Shown in pieces: positions 7,015-29,232 of a stretch of DNA of 41,123 nt (positions are counted from its first letter, which is position 1; every line of letters starts with the position of its first letter). A program made the translations under genes and the position numbers. The notes under the pieces are model-generated. The model was given only the letters and a program-made list of their open reading frames with translations. It was not told where the DNA came from and did not search any database. Source of the stretch: a virus (taxonomy: Duplodnaviria > Heunggongvirae > Uroviricota > Caudoviricetes); the IMG/VR virus record IMGVR_UViG_2565956719_000013; one strand, written 5' to 3'.

Positions 7015-7104
7015 ATTTACATCGCACTCCTCTTGTGCCATAGTAATCGGGCACTGGCAAAATCCAGTGCCGGGATTGGCGTCCCGGGTTACTAAGTGGC
7101 GCAT

Positions 7105-7127
7105 ACCACGCCAGACGTGGTTTTTTT
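7105..7127 (+). terminator. intrinsic terminator/attenuator in antirepressor leader
   Basis: stem ACCACG (7105-7110) / CGTGGT (7116-7121), loop CCAGA, T7 tract to 7127. Confidence 0.55.
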
Positions 7128-7283
7128 ATGCGTTAAGCACAGCTATATCCGAATTATGGTGGGCTGGGCAGGGGTCCGAAAGGACGCCGGTACCACTTAG
7201 GCCGGTACGCCAACCTTGTCCAGTTCACCACCAGTAATTGGCGTTGCGGTGGTGATTAAAATCACTAAGTGGAGATAACCACC

Positions 7284-7994
7284 ATGGCTAATGCTCAAAC
7301 TGCCATCTTCAAATTTGAATCTGTTAACCCTATCCGTTCCATCATTATCGATGGCCAACCATGGTTTGTAGCCCAAGACGTTTGTAGTGCGCTGCGTATC
7401 CAAAACGTCACCCAAGCACTTGAAAAACTGGATGATGATGAAAGGTCTATGTTCAACATAGGGCATGAACATCGTGCAATTTTTGACAGCCGAGTAAAAG
7501 AGATCAACATTATCTCCGAGTCAGGCCTCTACACACTGATCCTCCGCTGCCGCGACGCAGTGACACCAGGCACTATCCCCTACCGCTTTCGTAAATGGGT
7601 TACAGGTGAGGTTCTTCCTCAGATCCGCCGCACCGGAAGTTACATTAAAAACTCGCTCCCGCAGGAAGAACGCATAAAGATGGTTGCCGACCAGGTAGCC
7701 AACGCCACGGCGTCAGCAGTAATGCAGGCGATGAAGATAGAGAACAAAACCTACAGTGCCCCACTGAAGCCCGGCTACCGTAGCCTGATTCATTCGCCGT
7801 CTGGTGTTCTCGGCCTGACGGAGAACTCACTGCTGATGAATCTGCTGAACCAGTTACAGGACGACGGGCACGACGTATCGGGCGCGGCGGCGGAGCTGAC
7901 CACCATGTTCTGCTACATCGTCGGTGTGAGCAAATGCCTGCGTGATATCCAGACCCACGCGGAGTACATCAACGACAAGGCAGGGTTCTTCTGA
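7284..7994 (+). CDS. antirepressor with N-terminal Bro-N domain
   Basis: ATG 7284 with AAGTGGAG RBS; N-terminus FKFESVNPIRSIIIDGQPWFVAQDVCSAL matches Bro-N pattern; C-terminal domain paralogous to 6711..6968 product. Confidence 0.7.
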   Translation: MANAQTAIFKFESVNPIRSIIIDGQPWFVAQDVCSALRIQNVTQALEKLDDDERSMFNIGHEHRAIFDSRVKEINIISESGLYTLILRCRDAVTPGTIPYRFRKWVTGEVLPQIRRTGSYIKNSLPQEERIKMVADQVANATASAVMQAMKIENKTYSAPLKPGYRSLIHSPSGVLGLTENSLLMNLLNQLQDDGHDVSGAAAELTTMFCYIVGVSKCLRDIQTHAEYINDKAGFF

Positions 7995-17357: not shown

Positions 17358-19828
17358 CAGAATCCCCCAACAGTAAGGCGAGGAATAACGGCAAGAACAG
17401 ACAGCGGCAACGGGTCAAGCTGACGGATTTTTACACGTCCGTTTTTGCCCCAGTTACTGTCCAGTTTCACTTCTACTTTTCCGGTAGCATCATCAACAGG
17501 ATCATCGTAGAACTCGAATTCACGCTGTGGATATTCGTACCATTTACCGCCGGGCGTAGTCGCCCAGATGCCGCGACTGGCATTCACAACCAGAGTAACG
17601 GACGGGATCACCTGTTTTTTGTCCAGCAGCGTTTCCTGTCCGTTAATGTTGATATCCAGTGTTTCGAATTCAGCAGTTATTGGCAGGCCGATGTGCACTA
17701 CAGCCCCCGGTGATTCCAGCGTGACGGCACCTCCGGAAACCACTTTCTGTGGTTCCACGTTCGCATCAGAGAGAATGTTTACGGTCTGGCCTTCAAGATG
17801 AGACAAGCCGCCAAATGTCCGGCGCGCCATCTGCCAGTTCGTGGTGGCCACATTCCTGAGGGATGGCGGGACGTTCCTGTTAGCACGAACCACTACAGCG
17901 GTATTGCTGGTTACAGAAATAATGTCGCAACGTAATTCTTTTGACACCTCATCGCCAGTATCAGGATCAGTTCCGGTATAAGGGAACTGTAGTTGCGCGC
18001 CGACATCACTACTGGTGAAGTACGCACCACCAGAAACACTGATTGTATATTCCGCGCGGTAATCCCATTCGCCAGAACCACCAGTGATAATCATCGTTCT
18101 GTCAGACGTATTTCTTCCATCATAGCTAAGGCCAGAATCAACAAAGAAAGCATCTTCATCGCTGGTAAATAAACGGCTGGACAGTCGCTCGATGTATCTC
18201 ACTGTTTGCCCGTTAACGGTTCGGTTAACGACGAAATACACCGCATCTTCATTGCCTTCGCTGATACTGCATGTGCTTTCATATTTTCCGGTACTGGATT
18301 GTGGTGCCCATGCAAAAACCTGCTGATCACGCAAATAGGTCATCACCAGTAATTTACCGTCATCACGGATGCAGAAGGCGCTGGAGTAAGGGACTATTGA
18401 GAAGCACCAGTCAACAATGCTGTGCTTCTGAAAAAGATGATTGGCAAGGATAGTAAGGTCGTTCCCCTGATAGCCGTCAACATCGAATGAGTAGGCCAGA
18501 TCACGGACAACACTGCCTTTCTCCTGGACGAACAGAGCAATATTCGCCACGGCAATTGGTGGGACATTGCTCGAGCCATTTGATCCCTGAGAGCTGAATG
18601 CAAATGATGATGGGGTAAGCACTTTGTTCTGGTCGCCAGTGATGACGTACTCACCTCCGGAAGTCAGCGCCACCAGCGAACCAACATCAATCAGGTGACG
18701 GATCTCATTAACCTGACGCCCGGCATAGGTGTAGATAATTCTGTCGTCATCCTGCGTAGGATTGCTTTTGCCAAAATCCTTATAATCCCCGGTACGGCTG
18801 GCCCAGATAGTCTGAGGAAACGCAGTCGATGCGGCGAAGTAAAGACGTTGTTGATAATAAACAACAGTGCCAGGATAACCATTAACACTGTTCCAGGCAT
18901 ATTTAGCCCATTTATAGCTGGCATTATCCTCGCCAACTACCTGCGAAGGGATATAGGAAATCACCTCGGCAGTTGCAGTAGTTCCATTTGCAGCAGTGAT
19001 ACGGGCAATGCCAAAACCACTGTGCAGATATTCCCACTCAATGCCAGTATCATCATCACCGGATCCGCCCCAGCCATCCCATGATGTGCCTTCTGTATGC
19101 GAAGGGCGCAAAGTACCTGTTTTGCCTGCTGTAACGGCGCGATAGTAGTTACTGTCTGCACGGCGAATATCGCCAATCGACGTACTCTTACTGGTTTCCC
19201 ATACCGGCACAGAATCCACTGCAGGCTGTTCCAGATAGAACAATTTGCCTACCTGCTCCGCGCCAAAAATAGAGGCGCTTGCCGTTAGCGTAATTGTCCC
19301 GGTGCTGGCGCTGGCATAAACCGTCACTGACTCGTCAATATTGATATCTTCAAATGGCCCGTTCTTCGTTACCACATCAACCAGTTGCCAGTTGTCATGC
19401 GCATAGCGGCGCAACTCTTTCGGCGGGTATGCCGGATGAACCAGCGTAAGCACGTCTGCGCTTTGCGTGAATTTAATTCGGAACAGATCGGCTTCAGTAT
19501 ATGGCGTGGAAATTTCATAAATAACATTGCTGCTGTTCAGCACCAACGCACCATCTTTGATAACGCGCATGTACTGGTGTCCGAACTCCAGAGCATAAGT
19601 CTGAACCGTCGAGAACTGGAACGGGATCAGGCGGCATTTCCGATTTGGGTATTTGGCGGCACCGACAAAACGCGTACCAGGTCGATTCTCAACTCCGCCA
19701 TACTGCCGCACGATAAAGTTATCGCACTTGCGCAATGCCACCTGGTACTTCGCCATGTCAATACGACCGTACAACGACGGTCCAATCTCACCACCGGCAA
19801 AGCTGGGCTGGATCCAACTGATAGCCAT
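17357..19828 (-). CDS. tail tubular protein B-like (nozzle)
   Basis: 823 aa; GAGGT RBS; N-terminal FAGGEIGPSLYGR resembles T7 gp12 N-terminus; follows adaptor-like gene. Confidence 0.55.
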   Translation of the reverse strand: MAISWIQPSFAGGEIGPSLYGRIDMAKYQVALRKCDNFIVRQYGGVENRPGTRFVGAAKYPNRKCRLIPFQFSTVQTYALEFGHQYMRVIKDGALVLNSSNVIYEISTPYTEADLFRIKFTQSADVLTLVHPAYPPKELRRYAHDNWQLVDVVTKNGPFEDINIDESVTVYASASTGTITLTASASIFGAEQVGKLFYLEQPAVDSVPVWETSKSTSIGDIRRADSNYYRAVTAGKTGTLRPSHTEGTSWDGWGGSGDDDTGIEWEYLHSGFGIARITAANGTTATAEVISYIPSQVVGEDNASYKWAKYAWNSVNGYPGTVVYYQQRLYFAASTAFPQTIWASRTGDYKDFGKSNPTQDDDRIIYTYAGRQVNEIRHLIDVGSLVALTSGGEYVITGDQNKVLTPSSFAFSSQGSNGSSNVPPIAVANIALFVQEKGSVVRDLAYSFDVDGYQGNDLTILANHLFQKHSIVDWCFSIVPYSSAFCIRDDGKLLVMTYLRDQQVFAWAPQSSTGKYESTCSISEGNEDAVYFVVNRTVNGQTVRYIERLSSRLFTSDEDAFFVDSGLSYDGRNTSDRTMIITGGSGEWDYRAEYTISVSGGAYFTSSDVGAQLQFPYTGTDPDTGDEVSKELRCDIISVTSNTAVVVRANRNVPPSLRNVATTNWQMARRTFGGLSHLEGQTVNILSDANVEPQKVVSGGAVTLESPGAVVHIGLPITAEFETLDININGQETLLDKKQVIPSVTLVVNASRGIWATTPGGKWYEYPQREFEFYDDPVDDATGKVEVKLDSNWGKNGRVKIRQLDPLPLSVLAVIPRLTVGGF

Positions 19829-20433
19829 CAGGACAACCTCGCAATGGTAAACTCGTCAACCGGTGGCAGTGGTTCCTGTGATTCATTCTGGCTATGCGAG
19901 CCAGCACTAAGAATCACGCGATTGTACATATTGAGGGCAAACGTACCGAGGTCTGCATTCCCAGTCAGCGCCATGTTAATAGCTGCCGCAAGACGCCAGG
20001 CCAACGCCTCCATAAAAATGGCATCAAACATGTTCACATCTGAAACGCGAGAGACATACTTGAGCCATGCCTGCGGCTGGTCTGTGTAGATCAACTTTCC
20101 TGTTCCGTTGGTGTCTGCACCAACTTCGTACTGAACGCGCATTGCTGCTGTTGGATTGCGTACACCAGGAAGCATAATTTCAGTAATGCGCAGACAATCG
20201 GACGGGTACTGATACGCATATTCCCAGTCAGGCGGTGGATTGCTCGTATCTGCAAGCGCCACGCGTTTGGTAGCAAAGTTCCAGTCAAAATCAGAAAGCA
20301 CAGCATCACGGCAGGCCTCAAAGTGCAGCGAACATTCCCCCGCTTCCTTGCTGGCTTCCGTCAGGCTGTTAATGCTGCGGCTATTGCCAATATTGGACAG
20401 CGCACGATTGCAGATCTCTACTACAGAGGCCAT
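19828..20433 (-). CDS. tail tubular protein A-like (adaptor)
   Basis: 201 aa, size and position of T7 gp11; GGGGGTGA RBS; ATGA overlap with next gene. Confidence 0.5.
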   Translation of the reverse strand: MASVVEICNRALSNIGNSRSINSLTEASKEAGECSLHFEACRDAVLSDFDWNFATKRVALADTSNPPPDWEYAYQYPSDCLRITEIMLPGVRNPTAAMRVQYEVGADTNGTGKLIYTDQPQAWLKYVSRVSDVNMFDAIFMEALAWRLAAAINMALTGNADLGTFALNMYNRVILSAGSHSQNESQEPLPPVDEFTIARLS

Positions 20434-20756
20434 TACTCACCCCCATTGCCGTACAGGGTTTCAGCCGCTGATTTTTCTACATCCCCGGAAACAGGAGCGA
20501 TCGCCATATCAGTGATCTGCAGATCGGCGCTGCGATTAACACCATCGTCAGTTTCTCTGGCAGACAGGCCTCGAATAACAGCTTTTGCAGTTATCATCAC
20601 TTCTGTTCCGACGCCCTGAGGTTGCGCCTTCAGCTTATTCAATGTGTCGTTATTAAGAGTGATGCACAGCCCCCACGGGTATTCATCGCGAGTTCTGGTT
20701 TCTCCGCTCTCATCCTGGTAGCTGTCAGTGCCGGTTTTGAGGTTTACGAGTTCCAT
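20433..20756 (-). CDS. hypothetical protein
   Basis: start moved to ATG 20756 (AGGAG RBS 5 nt upstream); 107 aa. Confidence 0.45.
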   Translation of the reverse strand: MELVNLKTGTDSYQDESGETRTRDEYPWGLCITLNNDTLNKLKAQPQGVGTEVMITAKAVIRGLSARETDDGVNRSADLQITDMAIAPVSGDVEKSAAETLYGNGGE

Positions 20757-20772
20757 ATACACTCCTGCAATA

Positions 20773-20790
20773 AAGGGGCCGAAGCCCCTT
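20773..20790 (-). terminator. intercistronic hairpin with UUCG tetraloop, possible attenuator
   Basis: minus strand AAGGGGC-UUCG-GCCCCUU followed by UUUAUUG, immediately before RBS of 20433..20756. Confidence 0.4.
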
Positions 20791-20806
20791 GTCGGATTCG
20801 CGAGGC

Positions 20807-21142
20807 TTACACGCCTAGTTCTTTACGCTTATCTGCGATCTTCTCGCGGAGCGTTTCGGCTTTAGCGTTATGGTGTGGCTTCTCGTTAAAGAGCAATTCG
20901 TACTCTTCACGGAGCTTATCCAGTTCACCATCATCTGACACATCGTTGATGATTTTGGTGCTGGTTGCTGCCATTGACACCTTTCCTGCAACTTTTGCTT
21001 TTGCCTGTCTGGCTGCATCGTTAACAGGTTCCAGTGCGCTACCAGGCTCACCTTCGTATTCGATTTCTGCCCCCTCCGGCCACAGTGTGTTATGGATATG
21101 AGAGAGGCGCAGAACGCGGTATCTTGGTTTCTCACCTGACAT
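20807..21142 (-). CDS. hypothetical protein
   Basis: start moved to ATG 21142 (AAGGTGA RBS); 111 aa, Lys/Glu-rich C-terminus. Confidence 0.45.
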   Translation of the reverse strand: MSGEKPRYRVLRLSHIHNTLWPEGAEIEYEGEPGSALEPVNDAARQAKAKVAGKVSMAATSTKIINDVSDDGELDKLREEYELLFNEKPHHNAKAETLREKIADKRKELGV

Positions 21143-21152
21143 CGATATCACC

Positions 21153-21590
21153 TTAACCAGTTACTTTTGAGCGGATCGGATACGGCGTATTGGCATCAAC
21201 ATCAAGACTGATACCAGCAGTGAATTCGCCAGCCGTTAGCGGGCCAGTTGCGACGGAGTAGTTAACACGCAGATATCGCTGAACACCGGCAGGCACCTTT
21301 GCAGAAACAACTCGTTTACCTGCTGTCAGGGCGGTCTTTGCCAGTGCACCACTATCATAAATAGTGGTCCATGAGCTGTTATCCTCACTCGTCTGCAACT
21401 GGATGTTTACAGTTGCATCACCGCTTGCTGCGGCGGCTGTGTTAACCAGCGCCCAAAACTCAAGCGGGTAACCCACGCCGATATCACGACGTTTTCCGTC
21501 AATTGGACCGAGATCGATTACGTCAGTAGAAGCCGCGGTATCAGTTACCGCCTGTGCTTCGGAGAACATCAACAGTTTGTCGGTGATCAT
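21153..21590 (-). CDS. hypothetical head-associated protein
   Basis: GGAGAAAG RBS; 145 aa; directly after capsid gene. Confidence 0.5.
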   Translation of the reverse strand: MITDKLLMFSEAQAVTDTAASTDVIDLGPIDGKRRDIGVGYPLEFWALVNTAAAASGDATVNIQLQTSEDNSSWTTIYDSGALAKTALTAGKRVVSAKVPAGVQRYLRVNYSVATGPLTAGEFTAGISLDVDANTPYPIRSKVTG

Positions 21591-21641
21591 CTTCTTTCTC
21601 CATTAGTGGGTCTGTTACGACCCACAGGTTAATAACAGGCG

Positions 21642-22634
21642 TTACACCACGCGGGCTTCTGTTTCCAGAAGCGCATCAGTTTCACGGATTGGTACACCAC
21701 GGAATGAAGTCCACCACTCGCCTTCTGTCTCTTTTACGCTGATAGCCAGAGATGTTTTCTCCAGAGACTGCAGATCAAGAGCCTGGCCTACAGTGCGGTT
21801 CATGTAGAACACCGGGCGGCCCATGCCACGGTTTGGAATGCGATGCAGTGCTTTAACCATCAACTTCGCAATATTTGCGGCAGAGGATGGTTCTGAAAGA
21901 TTGCTGACATCGATGTTTGCAATGCGAACAACATAACGCCAGTCACGCAGAGCAAGTCCGTTATCCCATTTGTAATGGGTGCGATAGCCTTCGTACTTGC
22001 CGCCATTAGCATCTTCCAGTGTCACCTGGCCTTTATCTTCCATCTGGATGCCAGCCTTCTGCCCTTTCGGGAAGATGCCATGCACGGTGTTTTCGCCCCA
22101 CACCACTAACCAGATTGAGGTGTTATCTGTACCCGTGCCACCAGCATCAATGATGTTCTGAGCATTACCCGCAGACAGGCTGGAATAGCGGGAGGACAGT
22201 CCCATAAACTGCTGAGGATTAACGCTGGAATCACCATAAAACAGCGTCTGCGCCATCTGCTGATTCATCGCTTCAATAAATGCGCGGTCTTCAGAAAGGC
22301 GGAATTCGGCGGTATTGCCGTTCAGATCAGCCAGTGACTTATCGACTTCCGCATAGGTTTCCAGCATGCCAACGGAATCGGTTACCTGCACTGTGGTTGA
22401 TTTGCTTGGCTGTACGCCATAGTTCAGCAAACGCCAGGTAGCTGAAGGTAAACCAGAACGAATGGTGGTTCGGTGTCCGGTAGGAAGGTTCCCTTCGACA
22501 AAAGGCATATCCTGAAGGATCGGGTTAGTTTGACCGAGAAGCTCGATAATCTTATCGACTTTCCCGTTTGGATCGACGCGCTTACCCCAGTCAGCCAGCG
22601 TTAGCGCAGTTAAGCCTTTAACAGCCATTGTCAT
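21642..22634 (-). CDS. major capsid protein (by position and size)
   Basis: 330 aa; GAGAGGAA RBS; follows scaffold-like gene; stem-loop between it and next gene. Confidence 0.55.
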   Translation of the reverse strand: MTMAVKGLTALTLADWGKRVDPNGKVDKIIELLGQTNPILQDMPFVEGNLPTGHRTTIRSGLPSATWRLLNYGVQPSKSTTVQVTDSVGMLETYAEVDKSLADLNGNTAEFRLSEDRAFIEAMNQQMAQTLFYGDSSVNPQQFMGLSSRYSSLSAGNAQNIIDAGGTGTDNTSIWLVVWGENTVHGIFPKGQKAGIQMEDKGQVTLEDANGGKYEGYRTHYKWDNGLALRDWRYVVRIANIDVSNLSEPSSAANIAKLMVKALHRIPNRGMGRPVFYMNRTVGQALDLQSLEKTSLAISVKETEGEWWTSFRGVPIRETDALLETEARVV

Positions 22635-22642
22635 TTCCTCTC

Positions 22643-23338
22643 TTATTTGCCATAGAGCACTTCGGCCGCACTACGCTGGCCTTCATTACTACCGGTGACC
22701 ATGCCATCTTCAGACATCGCCTTTCCGATTTTCACGAACGTTTTGACCAGATCAGGGTGATTACCCAGCCCGGTGGTGTTCAGATATTCTTTGAGTTCAG
22801 GTGTCCCGAACTGGTCAAGCGCACGCTGTGCGGCGCTAAGGTTAGAAATCAACTTGTCGCCACCGATTTCTTTGTCAGCTTTTACATCAGCAGCCCACTG
22901 CTCGGTTGTTTTCTGCCAGGCTTCTGCCTGGCGCTGCTGCACACCTGCCAGAATCTTCGGATAAGCATCAACCAGCTTTTGCGCTTGCTCGTTGGTCAGG
23001 TTTAGTTCTCGCGCCACCGGCTCGAATTCCTTCAACGCTTCTGTATCCAGCTCTACGCCTTCGGCAGCCTGAAACTCGTACTTCTCAGGCGCACCCTCTG
23101 GTTTATCGCCGTCCTTTTTTTCATCCTGCTTATCGTTTTCAGGCTTTTTGTCATCAGCAGGTTTATCGCCATCAGCAACAGGTTGTGGCTTATCACCTTC
23201 CAGTTGTGATGGATCACCAACTGGAGCAGGGTTATCACCTGCAGGCGCTGACGGTTCTGACGCAGCCGGAGCTGCTCCACCATCGACTGGTTGCTCATTG
23301 CAAAGACGGCGATACAGCAAACGCTCAAATAAATTCAT
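22643..23338 (-). CDS. scaffolding protein
   Basis: start moved to ATG 23338 (AGGAG RBS); acidic, low-complexity Pro/Asp/Lys-rich N-terminus then helical region; between portal and capsid. Confidence 0.55.
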   Translation of the reverse strand: MNLFERLLYRRLCNEQPVDGGAAPAASEPSAPAGDNPAPVGDPSQLEGDKPQPVADGDKPADDKKPENDKQDEKKDGDKPEGAPEKYEFQAAEGVELDTEALKEFEPVARELNLTNEQAQKLVDAYPKILAGVQQRQAEAWQKTTEQWAADVKADKEIGGDKLISNLSAAQRALDQFGTPELKEYLNTTGLGNHPDLVKTFVKIGKAMSEDGMVTGSNEGQRSAAEVLYGK

Positions 23339-25961: not shown

Positions 25962-26038
25962 GTGGCATTAGCTCAGTCGGACAGAGCAACCGCCTTCTAA
26001 GCGGTTGGTCGCAGGTTCGAATCCTGCATGCCACGCCA
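25962..26038 (+). tRNA. tRNA-Arg (anticodon UCU)
   Basis: 77 nt; acceptor stem GTGGCAT/ATGCCAC, anticodon stem ACCGC/GCGGT with loop CTTCTAA, T-arm GCAGG-TTCGAAT-CCTGC, discriminator G, CCA encoded. Confidence 0.85.
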
Positions 26039-26081
26039 GAATCACGCCTAAGGACCGTGATGCCAGAAGTTCCAGGTGCTT

Positions 26082-26123
26082 GGCGGTGATGGTTTCCCTT
26101 GAAGGACTATCACCGCCCTTTTT
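26082..26123 (+). terminator. intrinsic terminator after tRNA
   Basis: GGCGGTGAT (26082-26090) / ATCACCGCC (26109-26117) stem, T5 at 26119-26123. Confidence 0.7.
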
Positions 26124-26241
26124 ACAGCAGGACGCCATTGCGATGACTTCATGCTGTAAACCAGTACAGCCACGGAAGGCATAACTCATTGCTTCCAGTT
26201 CGCCCGGTTCGCAGGGCATTTTTTTAAGGTGAGATTAGACT

Positions 26242-26613
26242 ATGAGTGAAAAAGACATTGAATCTGAAATTCAGGCTAAAGGTTTAGCCGCGCCGCGCGT
26301 TACGCCAGACCATATCGAGAGCATTATTGCTCAGGAGGCATATTTCACAGCAGAAGATGGTGCCTTTGGCGTAGCCATAAAAGCGAAACATACTGGCGGA
26401 GAGGTAAACTACCAGCCGCACGAATCACTTTCTCTGCTGACGTTCTGCGTCCTGGTGCTGCGCAACGGCTTCACCGTCACCGGAGAGAGCGCCTGTGCAA
26501 GCCCGGAAAACTTTGATGCAGAAATTGGTCGGAAGATTGCCCGACAGAATGCTGTAAACAAAATCTGGATGCTTGAAGGTTACTTGCTGAAGCAGAAGTT
26601 AAGCGAGCAATAA
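26242..26613 (+). CDS. Gp49-like small phage protein (N4 Gp49 / Sf6 gp66 family, from memory)
   Basis: AAGGTGAG RBS; 123 aa; C-terminal pattern FDAEIGRKIARQNAVNKIWMLEGYLL recalled for this family. Confidence 0.45.
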   Translation: MSEKDIESEIQAKGLAAPRVTPDHIESIIAQEAYFTAEDGAFGVAIKAKHTGGEVNYQPHESLSLLTFCVLVLRNGFTVTGESACASPENFDAEIGRKIARQNAVNKIWMLEGYLLKQKLSEQ

Positions 26614-26617
26614 CACC

Positions 26618-26629
26618 GTGACATATCAC
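26618..26629. repeat. near-palindrome GTGACATATCAC (copy 3, one mismatch)
   Basis: 5 bp after Gp49-like stop and 4 bp before terminator hairpin. Confidence 0.8.
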
Positions 26630-26633
26630 AAAC

Positions 26634-26660
26634 AGCCAGCCTATGAGCTGGCTTTGTTTT
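26634..26660. terminator. terminator between convergent Gp49-like gene and large terminase
   Basis: AGCCAGC (26634-26640) / GCTGGCT (26647-26653), loop CTATGA, then TTTGTTTT. Confidence 0.55.
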
Positions 26661-28782: not shown

Positions 28783-28814
28783 GTGGTAATAGTTACCGTT
28801 GTGGTAATAGTACC
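28783..28814. repeat. two direct copies of GTGGTAATAGT(T)ACC upstream of terS
   Basis: 28783-28797 and 28801-28814; each is a GGTAA-N3/4-TACC inverted arrangement. Confidence 0.8.
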
Positions 28815-28818
28815 ATGC

Positions 28819-28844
28819 AAAATAAAGCCGCCATAGTTGGCGGC
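28819..28844 (-). terminator. intrinsic terminator immediately upstream of terS
   Basis: GCCGCC (28827-28832) / GGCGGC (28839-28844), loop ATAGTT; minus-strand T-tract UUUAUUUU (28826-28819). Confidence 0.6.
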
Positions 28845-28885
28845 AGTATTCAAAACCCATCAAATTCATCATGCATAATCTACTC

Positions 28886-28897
28886 GTGACATGTCAC
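28886..28897. repeat. 12-bp palindrome GTGACATGTCAC (copy 1)
   Basis: perfect palindrome overlapping TGA stop (28894-28896) of the Cys-rich gene, 41 bp before terminator. Confidence 0.9.
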
Positions 28898-29232
28898 ACT
28901 ATTAATTTCGTTTCATGCCAGCCTTTAGTCACCCAGCATTGCGAGTCACCATTACACGGGCATGAATTAACGGGAACTCTCTCGCCGCACTTACCGCAAA
29001 GTTTTCTGCTGATCGATTTTATACGCCCGCGCACACGTGCATCATCCTGGCGGATCAGCAGCGCGATGTACTCGGCCATTTCATAGGGATCGCGACCAGG
29101 GCGCCGGGCGGCGCAGTTCCGCTCAAGCATTTCAATTTCCTGAGCATCAAGCACAATCTCCAGCTTACGCACACCAGATGCAGCTTGTCTGGCTCTCTGA
29201 GCGGCTTTGCGCTCTGCTGCTGATTTAGCCAT
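28894..29232 (-). CDS. basic protein with C-terminal Cys cluster (zinc-finger-like); candidate regulator
   Basis: ATG 29232 (ORF-track start 29235 is TTG); Arg/Ala-rich N-terminus, CGKCGERVPVNSCPCNGDSQC; last gene before terS. Confidence 0.5.
   Translation of the reverse strand: MAKSAAERKAAQRARQAASGVRKLEIVLDAQEIEMLERNCAARRPGRDPYEMAEYIALLIRQDDARVRGRIKSISRKLCGKCGERVPVNSCPCNGDSQCWVTKGWHETKLIV

Follow-up and report, generated by a model that had tools for sequence, protein, structure and literature searches.

The window analysed here, the whole 41,123-nt stretch of Caudoviricetes DNA held as IMG/VR record IMGVR_UViG_2565956719_000013, carries its late genes on the minus strand. From the portal gene to gp17 these form a tightly packed block of 16 kb in which the spacing between genes runs from -76 to +10 nt except in two places, where gaps measuring 51 and 50 nt house one hairpin apiece (hairpin 1 at the gp9/gp10 junction and hairpin 2 after the major capsid gene; Table 1). 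In megablast comparisons the region 19800-22700 is 98–99% identical to the Escherichia phages phiV10, TL-2011b, ZX5 and PAS61 and 77–84% identical to Enterobacter phage Tyrion, Salmonella phage PAT1 and one Klebsiella prophage, which identifies the window as an E. coli prophage of the epsilon15/phiV10 type (podophage, genus Uetakevirus). The phage is temperate. Of 5,426 complete E. coli genomes, 515 (about 9.5%) contain the junction, and the prophage of E. coli SF-468 matches the window across it with 100% identity. The gp10 homologue, named "gp10: capsid staple protein" by PGAP, is 43% identical to gp10 of epsilon15, and the record note of epsilon15 gp11 cites the tail tubular protein A of T7. 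Four further ORFs of 820–1040 aa appear to match epsilon15 gp12, gp15, gp17 and the tailspike by position and size, an assignment by annotation and synteny. Both gp8 and gp9 sit between hairpin 2 and hairpin 1.

Table 1. Late-region features of the window, with their positions and the basis on which they were assigned
Feature	Coordinates	Strand	Basis or remark
Regulator gene, 113 aa	28894-29235, before terS		phrog_536 "transcriptional regulator" only
Candidate terminator before terS	28844-28827
Portal gene	25313-23634	-	gene order
Bbp19-like gene, then scaffold gene annotated "protease"	between portal and major capsid genes	-
Major capsid protein gene	21642..22634	-	"major head protein" in phiV10 and Tyrion, "major capsid protein" by PGAP; adjoins hairpin 2 on the 5' side
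Hairpin 2, GUGGGUC-GUAACA-GACCCAC	21606..21625	-	-12.4 kcal/mol; without U-tract
gp8, Bbp16-family capsid cement protein	21153..21590	-	Pfam PF21190 Bbp16, E = 7.3e-47; PGAP name
Promoter-like site inside gp8	21382-21354
gp9 homologue, 111 aa	20807..21142	-	ORF list; synteny with phiV10p12 / epsilon15 gp9; phrog_590; last gene before hairpin 1
gp9 stop codon UAA	20809-20807	-
Hairpin 1, AAGGGGC-UUCG-GCCCCUU	20773..20790	-	sequence; MFE and centroid folds
Hairpin 1, left arm AAGGGGC	20790-20784	-
Hairpin 1, loop UUCG	20783-20780	-
Hairpin 1, right arm GCCCCUU	20779-20773	-
U-rich tail UUUAUUG	20768..20774	-	starts where the G-C stem ends; U at 5 of its first 6 positions
Shine-Dalgarno AGGAG of gp10	20762..20766	-	5 nt 5' of the ATG (20756-20754); conserved in alignments
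gp10 homologue, 107 aa, capsid staple/decoration protein	20433..20756	-	Pfam PF21628 Gp10-like, E = 1.1e-51; first gene 3' of hairpin 1
gp11 homologue, tail tubular protein A-like	19828..20433	-	phrog_394 tail protein and phrog_9239 tail tubular protein
gp12, then other tail and ejection genes	3' of gp11	-

Anatomy of the hairpin at the gp9/gp10 junction

A first-pass annotation of this DNA had pointed to a GGGGC-UUCG-GCCCC hairpin with a short U-rich tail, placed between two small genes near the capsid gene and directly before the next ribosome-binding site; the sequence is as described, on the minus (coding) strand and in both the MFE and the centroid fold, and the two genes are gp9 and gp10. 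The core consists of five G-C pairs closing a cUUCGg tetraloop, and two outer A-U pairs are optional, the first two U of the tail being also able to pair with the upstream AA. Stability amounts to -12.1 kcal/mol for the stem of 7 bp and to -9.6 kcal/mol for the 5-bp G-C core, and the 86-nt context is not unusually structured (z = -0.56), so that the signal is that of a local hairpin. Sixteen nucleotides separate the gp9 UAA from the stem, on the same strand as the late genes; starting in sense orientation 17 nt past that codon, the hairpin is clear of the terminating ribosome. From its end there are 6 nt to the AGGAG and 16 nt to the ATG of gp10.

This anatomy, with a G+C-rich stem and short loop, an immediate U-rich tract and a sense orientation past a stop codon, is that of an intrinsic terminator, and it is confined to one direction, the plus-strand tail GTCGGATT not being T-rich. 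In a d'Aubenton-Carafa-type scoring, all values of which are approximate, the 5-bp reading gives d = +7.4 with a tail score T = 3.20, within the range of the other terminator-like sites of the window (d = 6.6 to 25), and the 7-bp reading gives a negative d of -18.5. A generic terminator scan of the window does not list the site, which is likely a technical false negative since the 7-bp extension uses up two of the tail Ts. The short stem, the interrupted U-tract (UUUAUUG), the missed scan and the negative 7-bp score all count against a terminator that leaks; on the other hand, the short stem and interrupted tract are themselves features that suggest a moderate termination efficiency. Rfam covariance models gave no match at hairpin 1 at gathering thresholds, nor at E up to 1 within 20300-21900. 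A dispersed repeat of the REP/BIME kind was also considered and rejected, the element being single-copy in the window even with two mismatches allowed.

From the structure, the position and the conservation of the hairpin together with its U-tract (see below) we infer termination of partial efficiency: hairpin 1 is probably an intrinsic (Rho-independent) terminator of the leaky kind, acting on the host RNA polymerase. The leak is required by the arrangement of the operon, for a scan of the 16 nt between the hairpin and the gp10 ATG revealed no promoter-like site, so gp10 and the tail genes need read-through and termination would have to be partial or conditionally suppressed. The polymerase must be that of the host because the complete epsilon15 record lists no gene for a phage RNA polymerase; the four large ORFs of the window, too, appear to correspond to structural genes of epsilon15.

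Conservation and recurrence at the head/tail boundary

The conservation of hairpin 1 was measured over 14 non-redundant lineages, namely the window, Tyrion, Klebsiella phage ST11-OXA245phi3.2, PAT1, BUCT554 and nine prophages (of Scandinavium, Kluyvera, Pseudocitrobacter, Buttiauxella, Erwinia dacicola, Superficieibacter, Pseudescherichia, Pseudomonas lundensis and Pantoea). Mean identity to the window is 0.96 in the 14-nt hairpin core, 0.84 in the U-rich tail, 0.74 in the Shine-Dalgarno region and 0.64 in the spacer from the gp9 stop to the hairpin, compared with 0.77–0.87 at codon positions 1 and 2 and 0.49–0.50 at codon position 3; the core is the most conserved segment within 300 nt. To judge from these alignments, it is under purifying selection. 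The hairpin is also identical in 80 of 80 prophage loci of IMG/VR, a scan that returned near-identical E. coli prophages only. The stem shows little covariation, with four of its seven pairs invariant and compensatory change confined to the outermost pair (AU, CG, GC), and hence the case for the hairpin rests on conservation together with positional recurrence. The variants seen are a G-U pair in Buttiauxella (GGGGU/GCCCC), an extra G-C pair in Superficieibacter (GGGGGC/GCCCCC), GGGGCC-GGAU-GGCCCC followed by UUUCUUUUC in Pantoea and, in the epsilon15 group, CGGGGCC-AUUC/UUUC-GGCCCCG followed by CUUUUCU. A U-rich tail is found in every lineage (UUUAUUG, UUUCUUG, UUUUUUG, UUCUUG, UUUCUUUUC or CUUUUCU), and all the Uetakevirus-type lineages compared retain a hairpin with an immediate U-tract at this boundary.

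The closest known system is the Salmonella phage epsilon15, whose RefSeq record (NC_004775.2) annotates a stem_loop at 7664..7686, at the gp9/gp10 junction, as a rho-independent terminator. It belongs to the same genus-level group and shares with the window the junction itself (gp9 stop, hairpin, gp10 ribosome-binding site), the GGGGC...GCCCC core and the U-rich tail. It differs in its longer stem (CGGGGCC/GGCCCCG with A/U extensions) and AUUC loop, and its upstream A-tract has led to its being annotated as a terminator on the opposite strand too, whereas hairpin 1 has a UUCG loop, acts in one direction by its sequence and carries a shorter, interrupted U-tract. The annotation of the epsilon15 terminator is itself a prediction. 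Hairpin 1 looks like a real, conserved and ordinary member of a well-known class, orthologous to the predicted terminator of epsilon15 and previously unannotated in this phage.

The same boundary carries hairpins of other sequence in more distant phages, where they stand directly before the tubular-A gene: GGGGGC UUCGU GCCCCC GCUUUUUCUUG in BPP-1 (bbp15 to bbp14), AAAGGGGC GAAA GCCCCUUUUUA in Klebsiella ST512-KPC3phi13.3 (core GGGGC-GAAA-GCCCC, then UUUUUA), GGGCCC UUCG GGGCCC UUUUCUAUUU with a U-run in Pseudomonas phage Ab31, GGGCCC UUCG GGGCC UUUUUCUUUUU, again with a U-run, in Pseudomonas phage UFJF_PfDIW6, and GGGGUCGGC GUAUU GCCGGCCCC UCUUUUUA in Xanthomonas phage CP2. Stems and loops differ among these relatives and the U-tract starts at the foot of the stem in all of them, which is the hallmark of a terminator. 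No such element precedes the tubular-A gene in BcepC6B, Ralstonia phage RpY1 and Vibrio phage VP5, where the gap measures 6–23 nt.

Could such a hairpin be a chance palindrome or a non-functional remnant? This explanation is already disfavoured and scarcely credible. The invariance of four of the stem pairs, which leaves strict covariation support weak, speaks for it, as does the appearance of the 14-mer with up to two mismatches in 21 of 100 shuffles of the window (the exact 14-mer core occurs once in the window). Against it, the core is more conserved than non-synonymous codon positions and tops its surroundings, and hairpins of other sequence occupy the corresponding boundary in distant phages. 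Additionally, the full pattern of five G/C pairs, a tetraloop and at least five T in the next 8 nt was observed four times in the window, compared with an expectation of only 0.07 per window, both strands counted, in 300 first-order Markov simulations.

A regulatory partner for the hairpin was sought upstream and rejected as unsupported. The conserved AAGCCUC just after the gp9 stop could pair, as an anti-terminator, with GGGGCUU (the left arm less its two A, followed by the UU of the loop), and in Pantoea the two seemed to co-vary; shuffled upstream sequences, however, pair about as often (fraction at least as paired 0.33–0.48, and 0.10 in Pantoea), and the pairing is missing in epsilon15, ST512 and Ab31.

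The comparison also separates the hairpin from the gene that follows it in the window. In Escherichia phage EC.W1-9 and in the prophage of E. coli strain 500010 gp10 is cleanly missing, and the same hairpin, the AGGAG and a 10-nt spacer lead directly to the ATG of gp11. Where a gp10 homologue is instead placed after the portal gene (BPP-1 bbp20, BcepC6B gp06, MW202640, zth2-2 and Limnohabitans DC33), no hairpin was found before it. On this comparative evidence the hairpin is tied to the head/tail boundary and not to gp10. Since the relatives lacking gp10 keep the hairpin directly before the tubular-A gene, gp10 has the character of a cassette placed between the predicted boundary terminator, which would be the older element, and the tail tubular-A gene gp11. 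The proposal of the first-pass annotation that the hairpin sets the ratio of head to tail gene expression needs a qualification for the window itself, where the next gene encodes a capsid staple protein (Pfam Gp10-like) and not a tail protein.

The constancy of hairpin, U-rich stretch and Shine-Dalgarno sequence as one unit when the downstream gene switches from gp10 to gp11, together with the distance of only 6 nt to the AGGAG, could also be read in terms of translation. U-rich sequence 5' of a Shine-Dalgarno can act as a translation enhancer, and the hairpin might isolate the gp10/gp11 ribosome-binding site from upstream structure, with the U-rich stretch serving as an S1-binding enhancer and transcription unaffected. 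Such a translation-context element is very unlikely: the distance from the U-tract to the Shine-Dalgarno sequence varies in Ab31, UFJF_PfDIW6 and CP2 while the junction of stem and U-tract is fixed, and most genes of the operon are translated without anything of the kind.

A boundary terminator invites comparison with Tphi of phage T7, a partial late terminator between the capsid gene 10 and the tail tubular gene 11 through which more head than tail message is made. The likeness lies in the position after capsid-proximal genes and, in BPP-1, ST512-KPC3phi13.3, Ab31, UFJF_PfDIW6, CP2, EC.W1-9 and E. coli 500010, directly before the tubular-A homologue. In the window, by contrast, the gp10 staple gene intervenes before the tubular-A gene. 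Tphi moreover acts on the phage's own single-subunit RNA polymerase, a defining feature for which hairpin 1, with no such polymerase annotated in epsilon15, has no counterpart. By analogy, hairpin 1 may work like Tphi, yet it is not a member of the Tphi class.

The stem-loop after the major capsid gene

The second stem-loop without a U-tract, which the first-pass annotation had placed right after the capsid gene, was found there (hairpin 2), 16 nt past the major capsid stop codon and 4 nt before the GGAG of gp8. Its terminator score is d = -35 by the same approximate formula. In all 14 Enterobacterales junctions examined (window included) a hairpin of -12 to -18 kcal/mol lies 4–5 nt before the gp8 GGAG. 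Eight distinct stem sequences occur in the Enterobacterales, all of them paired, with several pair types at all seven positions; they include GUGGGUC/GACCCAC, GUGGGCC/GGCCCAC, AUGGGCC/GGCCCAU, GCGGCCCG/CGGGCUGC, GCGGGGC/GCCCCGC and ACGGGCUGG/CCAGUCCGU. The loops are GUAACA, UUAACC, GUAA, GUGA, UUCU, UGCU and GAAA, and the tails are UAAUGGAG-like, with a U-tract in none of the lineages. These pairings come from a stem-anchored table built sequence by sequence, MAFFT and RNAalifold having mis-registered the element; the best hairpin was picked in each sequence and the table is in that respect partly circular. BPP-1 and BcepC6B likewise carry a strong G-C hairpin behind the capsid gene, and epsilon15 has no counterpart of hairpin 2 at that place.

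Judged by these comparisons, hairpin 2 is conserved in structure rather than in sequence and is without terminator features. The best explanation is a stabiliser between cistrons that does not terminate transcription and would favour the capsid cistron. Stem-loops that stabilise mRNA between cistrons are familiar from the malE-malF REP sequence and from the hairpins of the Rhodobacter puf operon. Hairpin 2, and possibly hairpin 1 in a second role, resembles them as a stable stem-loop just 3' of the most-needed cistron in a polycistronic message, with no U-tract in the case of hairpin 2; it differs in being single-copy and not a dispersed repeat, and its stabilising role is putative.

Hairpin 2 bears in two ways on the explanation under which hairpin 1 would be purely an mRNA stability or processing element with little or no termination. 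In that case the hairpin would block 3'-to-5' exonucleases after a downstream endonucleolytic cut, or shield the 5' end of the gp10-tail segment, and would thereby set half-lives that differ along one long late transcript. A stable cUUCGg hairpin between cistrons is the expected anatomy, hairpin 2 offers an example of it in which pairing is kept despite sequence changes and with no U-tract, and hairpin 1 itself has a short U-tract broken by other bases. This explanation, one of the two main rivals, is unlikely because hairpin 1 has its U-tract at the exact foot of the stem in every lineage though stems and loops differ, and an exonuclease barrier needs none, as hairpin 2 illustrates. The presence of the tract in the one hairpin and its absence from the other speaks for selection on the U-tract in hairpin 1. 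The two roles are, besides, not exclusive, for terminator hairpins also stabilise the transcripts that they end. The first-pass annotation had offered precisely these two roles, a partial terminator like Tphi or an mRNA stability element, and the proposal is supported as far as comparison can support it.

Late transcription and the role of the two hairpins

As a leaky terminator, hairpin 1 would act as follows. The polymerase transcribing the late operon would pass the gp9 stop codon, and the nascent RNA would fold into GGGGC-UUCG-GCCCC while a weak rU:dA hybrid (UUUAUU) occupies the active site. A fraction of the complexes would let the RNA go and the remaining ones would continue into gp10 and gp11, then into gp12 and the rest of the tail and ejection genes, so that transcript dosage would step down at the boundary of the head and tail modules. 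The terminated head-gene transcripts would end in a 3' hairpin, which should also slow 3'-to-5' exonucleases. A simple dosage model of high head and low tail expression fits poorly with gp10, which, going by the reported capsid structure of epsilon15, has to be supplied at roughly one copy for each capsid subunit and yet lies downstream of the hairpin. No transcriptome or 3'-end mapping for epsilon15, phiV10, SPC32H or BPP-1 was found in the literature searched.

How the late polymerase behaves at terminators may depend on the start of the operon. Before terS the order is the stop codon of the regulator gene, a promoter-like site (GTGACA, 18 nt, CATGAT), a leader of about 24 nt, a terminator, two GGTA(A)CTATTACCAC repeats and terS itself; the terminator is a good to strong candidate, with d = 21 by the approximate formula, and the epsilon15 record annotates a terminator together with a repressor site at the same place. 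In phage lambda, tR' with Q antitermination stands at the start of the late operon. The layout of the window recalls PR'-tR' in that a small regulator gene and terS enclose a promoter-like site, from which a short leader runs to a strong terminator. On the other hand, the 113-aa regulator is unlike Q proteins or solved structures, showing no detectable similarity to Q and no significant Pfam, NCBIfam or PDB match, so that the analogy is one of layout and a Q-like antiterminator function for it is a conjecture. Under antitermination of the lambda kind, late transcription would pass hairpin 1 in lytic growth; with a terminator-resistant late polymerase it would be mainly a stability element, a point in favour of the stability explanation above, or an insulator in the lysogen.

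According to the latter explanation hairpin 1 is a terminator that matters mainly in the prophage state, where it would insulate the tail and ejection genes from stray transcription, the lytic polymerase being resistant. The layout from regulator to terS, the annotation of a terminator with a repressor site in epsilon15 and the temperate lifestyle of a phage this common as a prophage are all consistent with it. It is nevertheless improbable: antitermination by a regulator that resembles neither Q nor any solved structure is conjectural, the element is also kept in apparently lytic relatives isolated from plates (EC.W1-9, from sewage), and no promoter-like site is evident just upstream of hairpin 1, the sole one found lying inside gp8. 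The reading of hairpin 1 as a leaky terminator thus stands as the probable one.

Taken together, the two hairpins may form a conserved two-step dosage device of the host-polymerase late operons of epsilon15/BPP-1/AF-type podophages, made up of a stabiliser after the capsid gene, a leaky head/tail terminator that would be the counterpart of Tphi (kept while the flanking proteins diverged to 30–45% identity) and an insertion slot for gp10; this combined picture is a tentative one, somewhat less probable than an even chance. What the comparison adds to existing knowledge is modest and consists of two points, the apparent persistence of the predicted boundary terminator across epsilon15, BPP-1 and AF-type podophages and the optional gp10 cassette just downstream of it. 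It opens no new question, as late operons are well known to contain intrinsic terminators and the epsilon15 record already annotates the orthologous site. The slot 3' of the terminator, which tolerates the gain or loss of a gene (gp10), is also of use for engineering. If confirmed, the arrangement would provide a simple annotation rule for this phage group, in which a terminator is to be looked for ahead of the tubular-A gene and a stabilising hairpin behind the capsid gene. It would then also reveal the means by which a temperate podophage dependent on the host polymerase balances head against tail message within one long operon, a task for which T7 has Tphi.

A capsid-staple gene missing from near-identical phages

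The capsid-staple gene gp10 (20433-20756 in the window) is cleanly missing in some phages and prophages that are otherwise 97-99% identical, and on these sequence comparisons it looks like a dispensable cassette. At the junctions without gp10, found in Escherichia phage EC.W1-9 (L006) and in the prophage of Escherichia coli strain 500010 (L114), the hairpin and AGGAG are followed by a 10-nt spacer and then by the gp11 ATG, and the Bbp16-family cement gene gp8 is retained. EC.W1-9 was not found among the 60 records matched in the gp10 tblastn search, and in 79 of the 518 matching records from complete E. coli genomes, coverage of the junction query was below 80%.

The position of the gp10-family gene also differs between lineages, as seen when the loci L009, L010 (BPP-1), L011 (BcepC6B), L012 and L013 are compared with the window. 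BPP-1, BcepC6B and several uncultured phages carry it after the portal gene, and in the Uetakevirus lineages it is flanked by gp9 and gp11; searching the gp9-gp11 junction in Klebsiella ST512-KPC3phi13.3, Ab31 and UFJF_PfDIW6 revealed no such gene.

Elements elsewhere in the window

The stretch that separates the 113-aa regulator gene from terS has a layout resembling that of lambda PR'-tR'/Q: a promoter-like site is separated by about 24 nt from a strong terminator-like hairpin (GCCGCC-AACUAU-GGCGGC, then UUUAUUUUG), after which GGTA(A)CTATTACCAC occurs twice as a direct repeat. The regulator itself gave no match to any Q family or solved structure. Matches to isrK and C4 RNA (7051-7235, +) lie a short way upstream of a 241-aa ORF, a pairing that resembles the P1/P7-type C4 immunity arrangement, here in a podophage. 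An opposite-strand insert (25962-26653), made up of a tRNA-Arg gene, an ORF and two terminator-like hairpins, separates terL from the portal block, and epsilon15 carries a comparable reverse-strand gene and terminator at the corresponding place (epsilon15p50).

Coordinates of features in the window and at junctions lacking gp10
Feature	Sequence	Coordinates	Strand	Remark
gp10-less junction	L006	2394-2451
gp10-less junction	L114	1044-1101
isrK Hfq-binding sRNA match	window	7051-7127	+	Rfam, above gathering score
C4 antisense RNA match	window	7152-7235	+	Rfam, above gathering score
241-aa ORF	window	7269-7994	+
GCCUC and gp9 stop region	window	20801-20816	-	equivalents in loci L002-L005 and L095-L101
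tRNA-Arg	window	25962-26038	+	anticodon TCT
Terminator-like hairpin	window	26082-26117	+
ORF	window	26242-26613	+	N4 gp49 / Sf6 gene 66 family
Terminator-like hairpin	window	26634-26653		two-directional
Regulator-terS interval	window	28812-28900	-
Terminator-like hairpin	window	28844-28827	-	strong
Promoter-like site	window	28897-28868	-

Stop codons and intercistronic hairpins

Directly 3' of the gp9 stop codon, GCCUC is conserved in 13 of the 14 lineages despite being non-coding. Pairing with GGC of the last gp9 codons would give a weak 4-bp hairpin with the stop codon in its loop. In epsilon15 the hairpin there is stronger, with UAA in its loop. A role of GCCUC as an anti-terminator was unsupported when tested. 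The two intercistronic hairpins, at 20790 and 21625, both start exactly 17 nt past the end of the stop codon before them (last bases at 20807 and 21642 respectively), leaving 16 nt between stop and stem; this common distance may be coincidental, or both hairpins may have to lie clear of the terminating ribosome.
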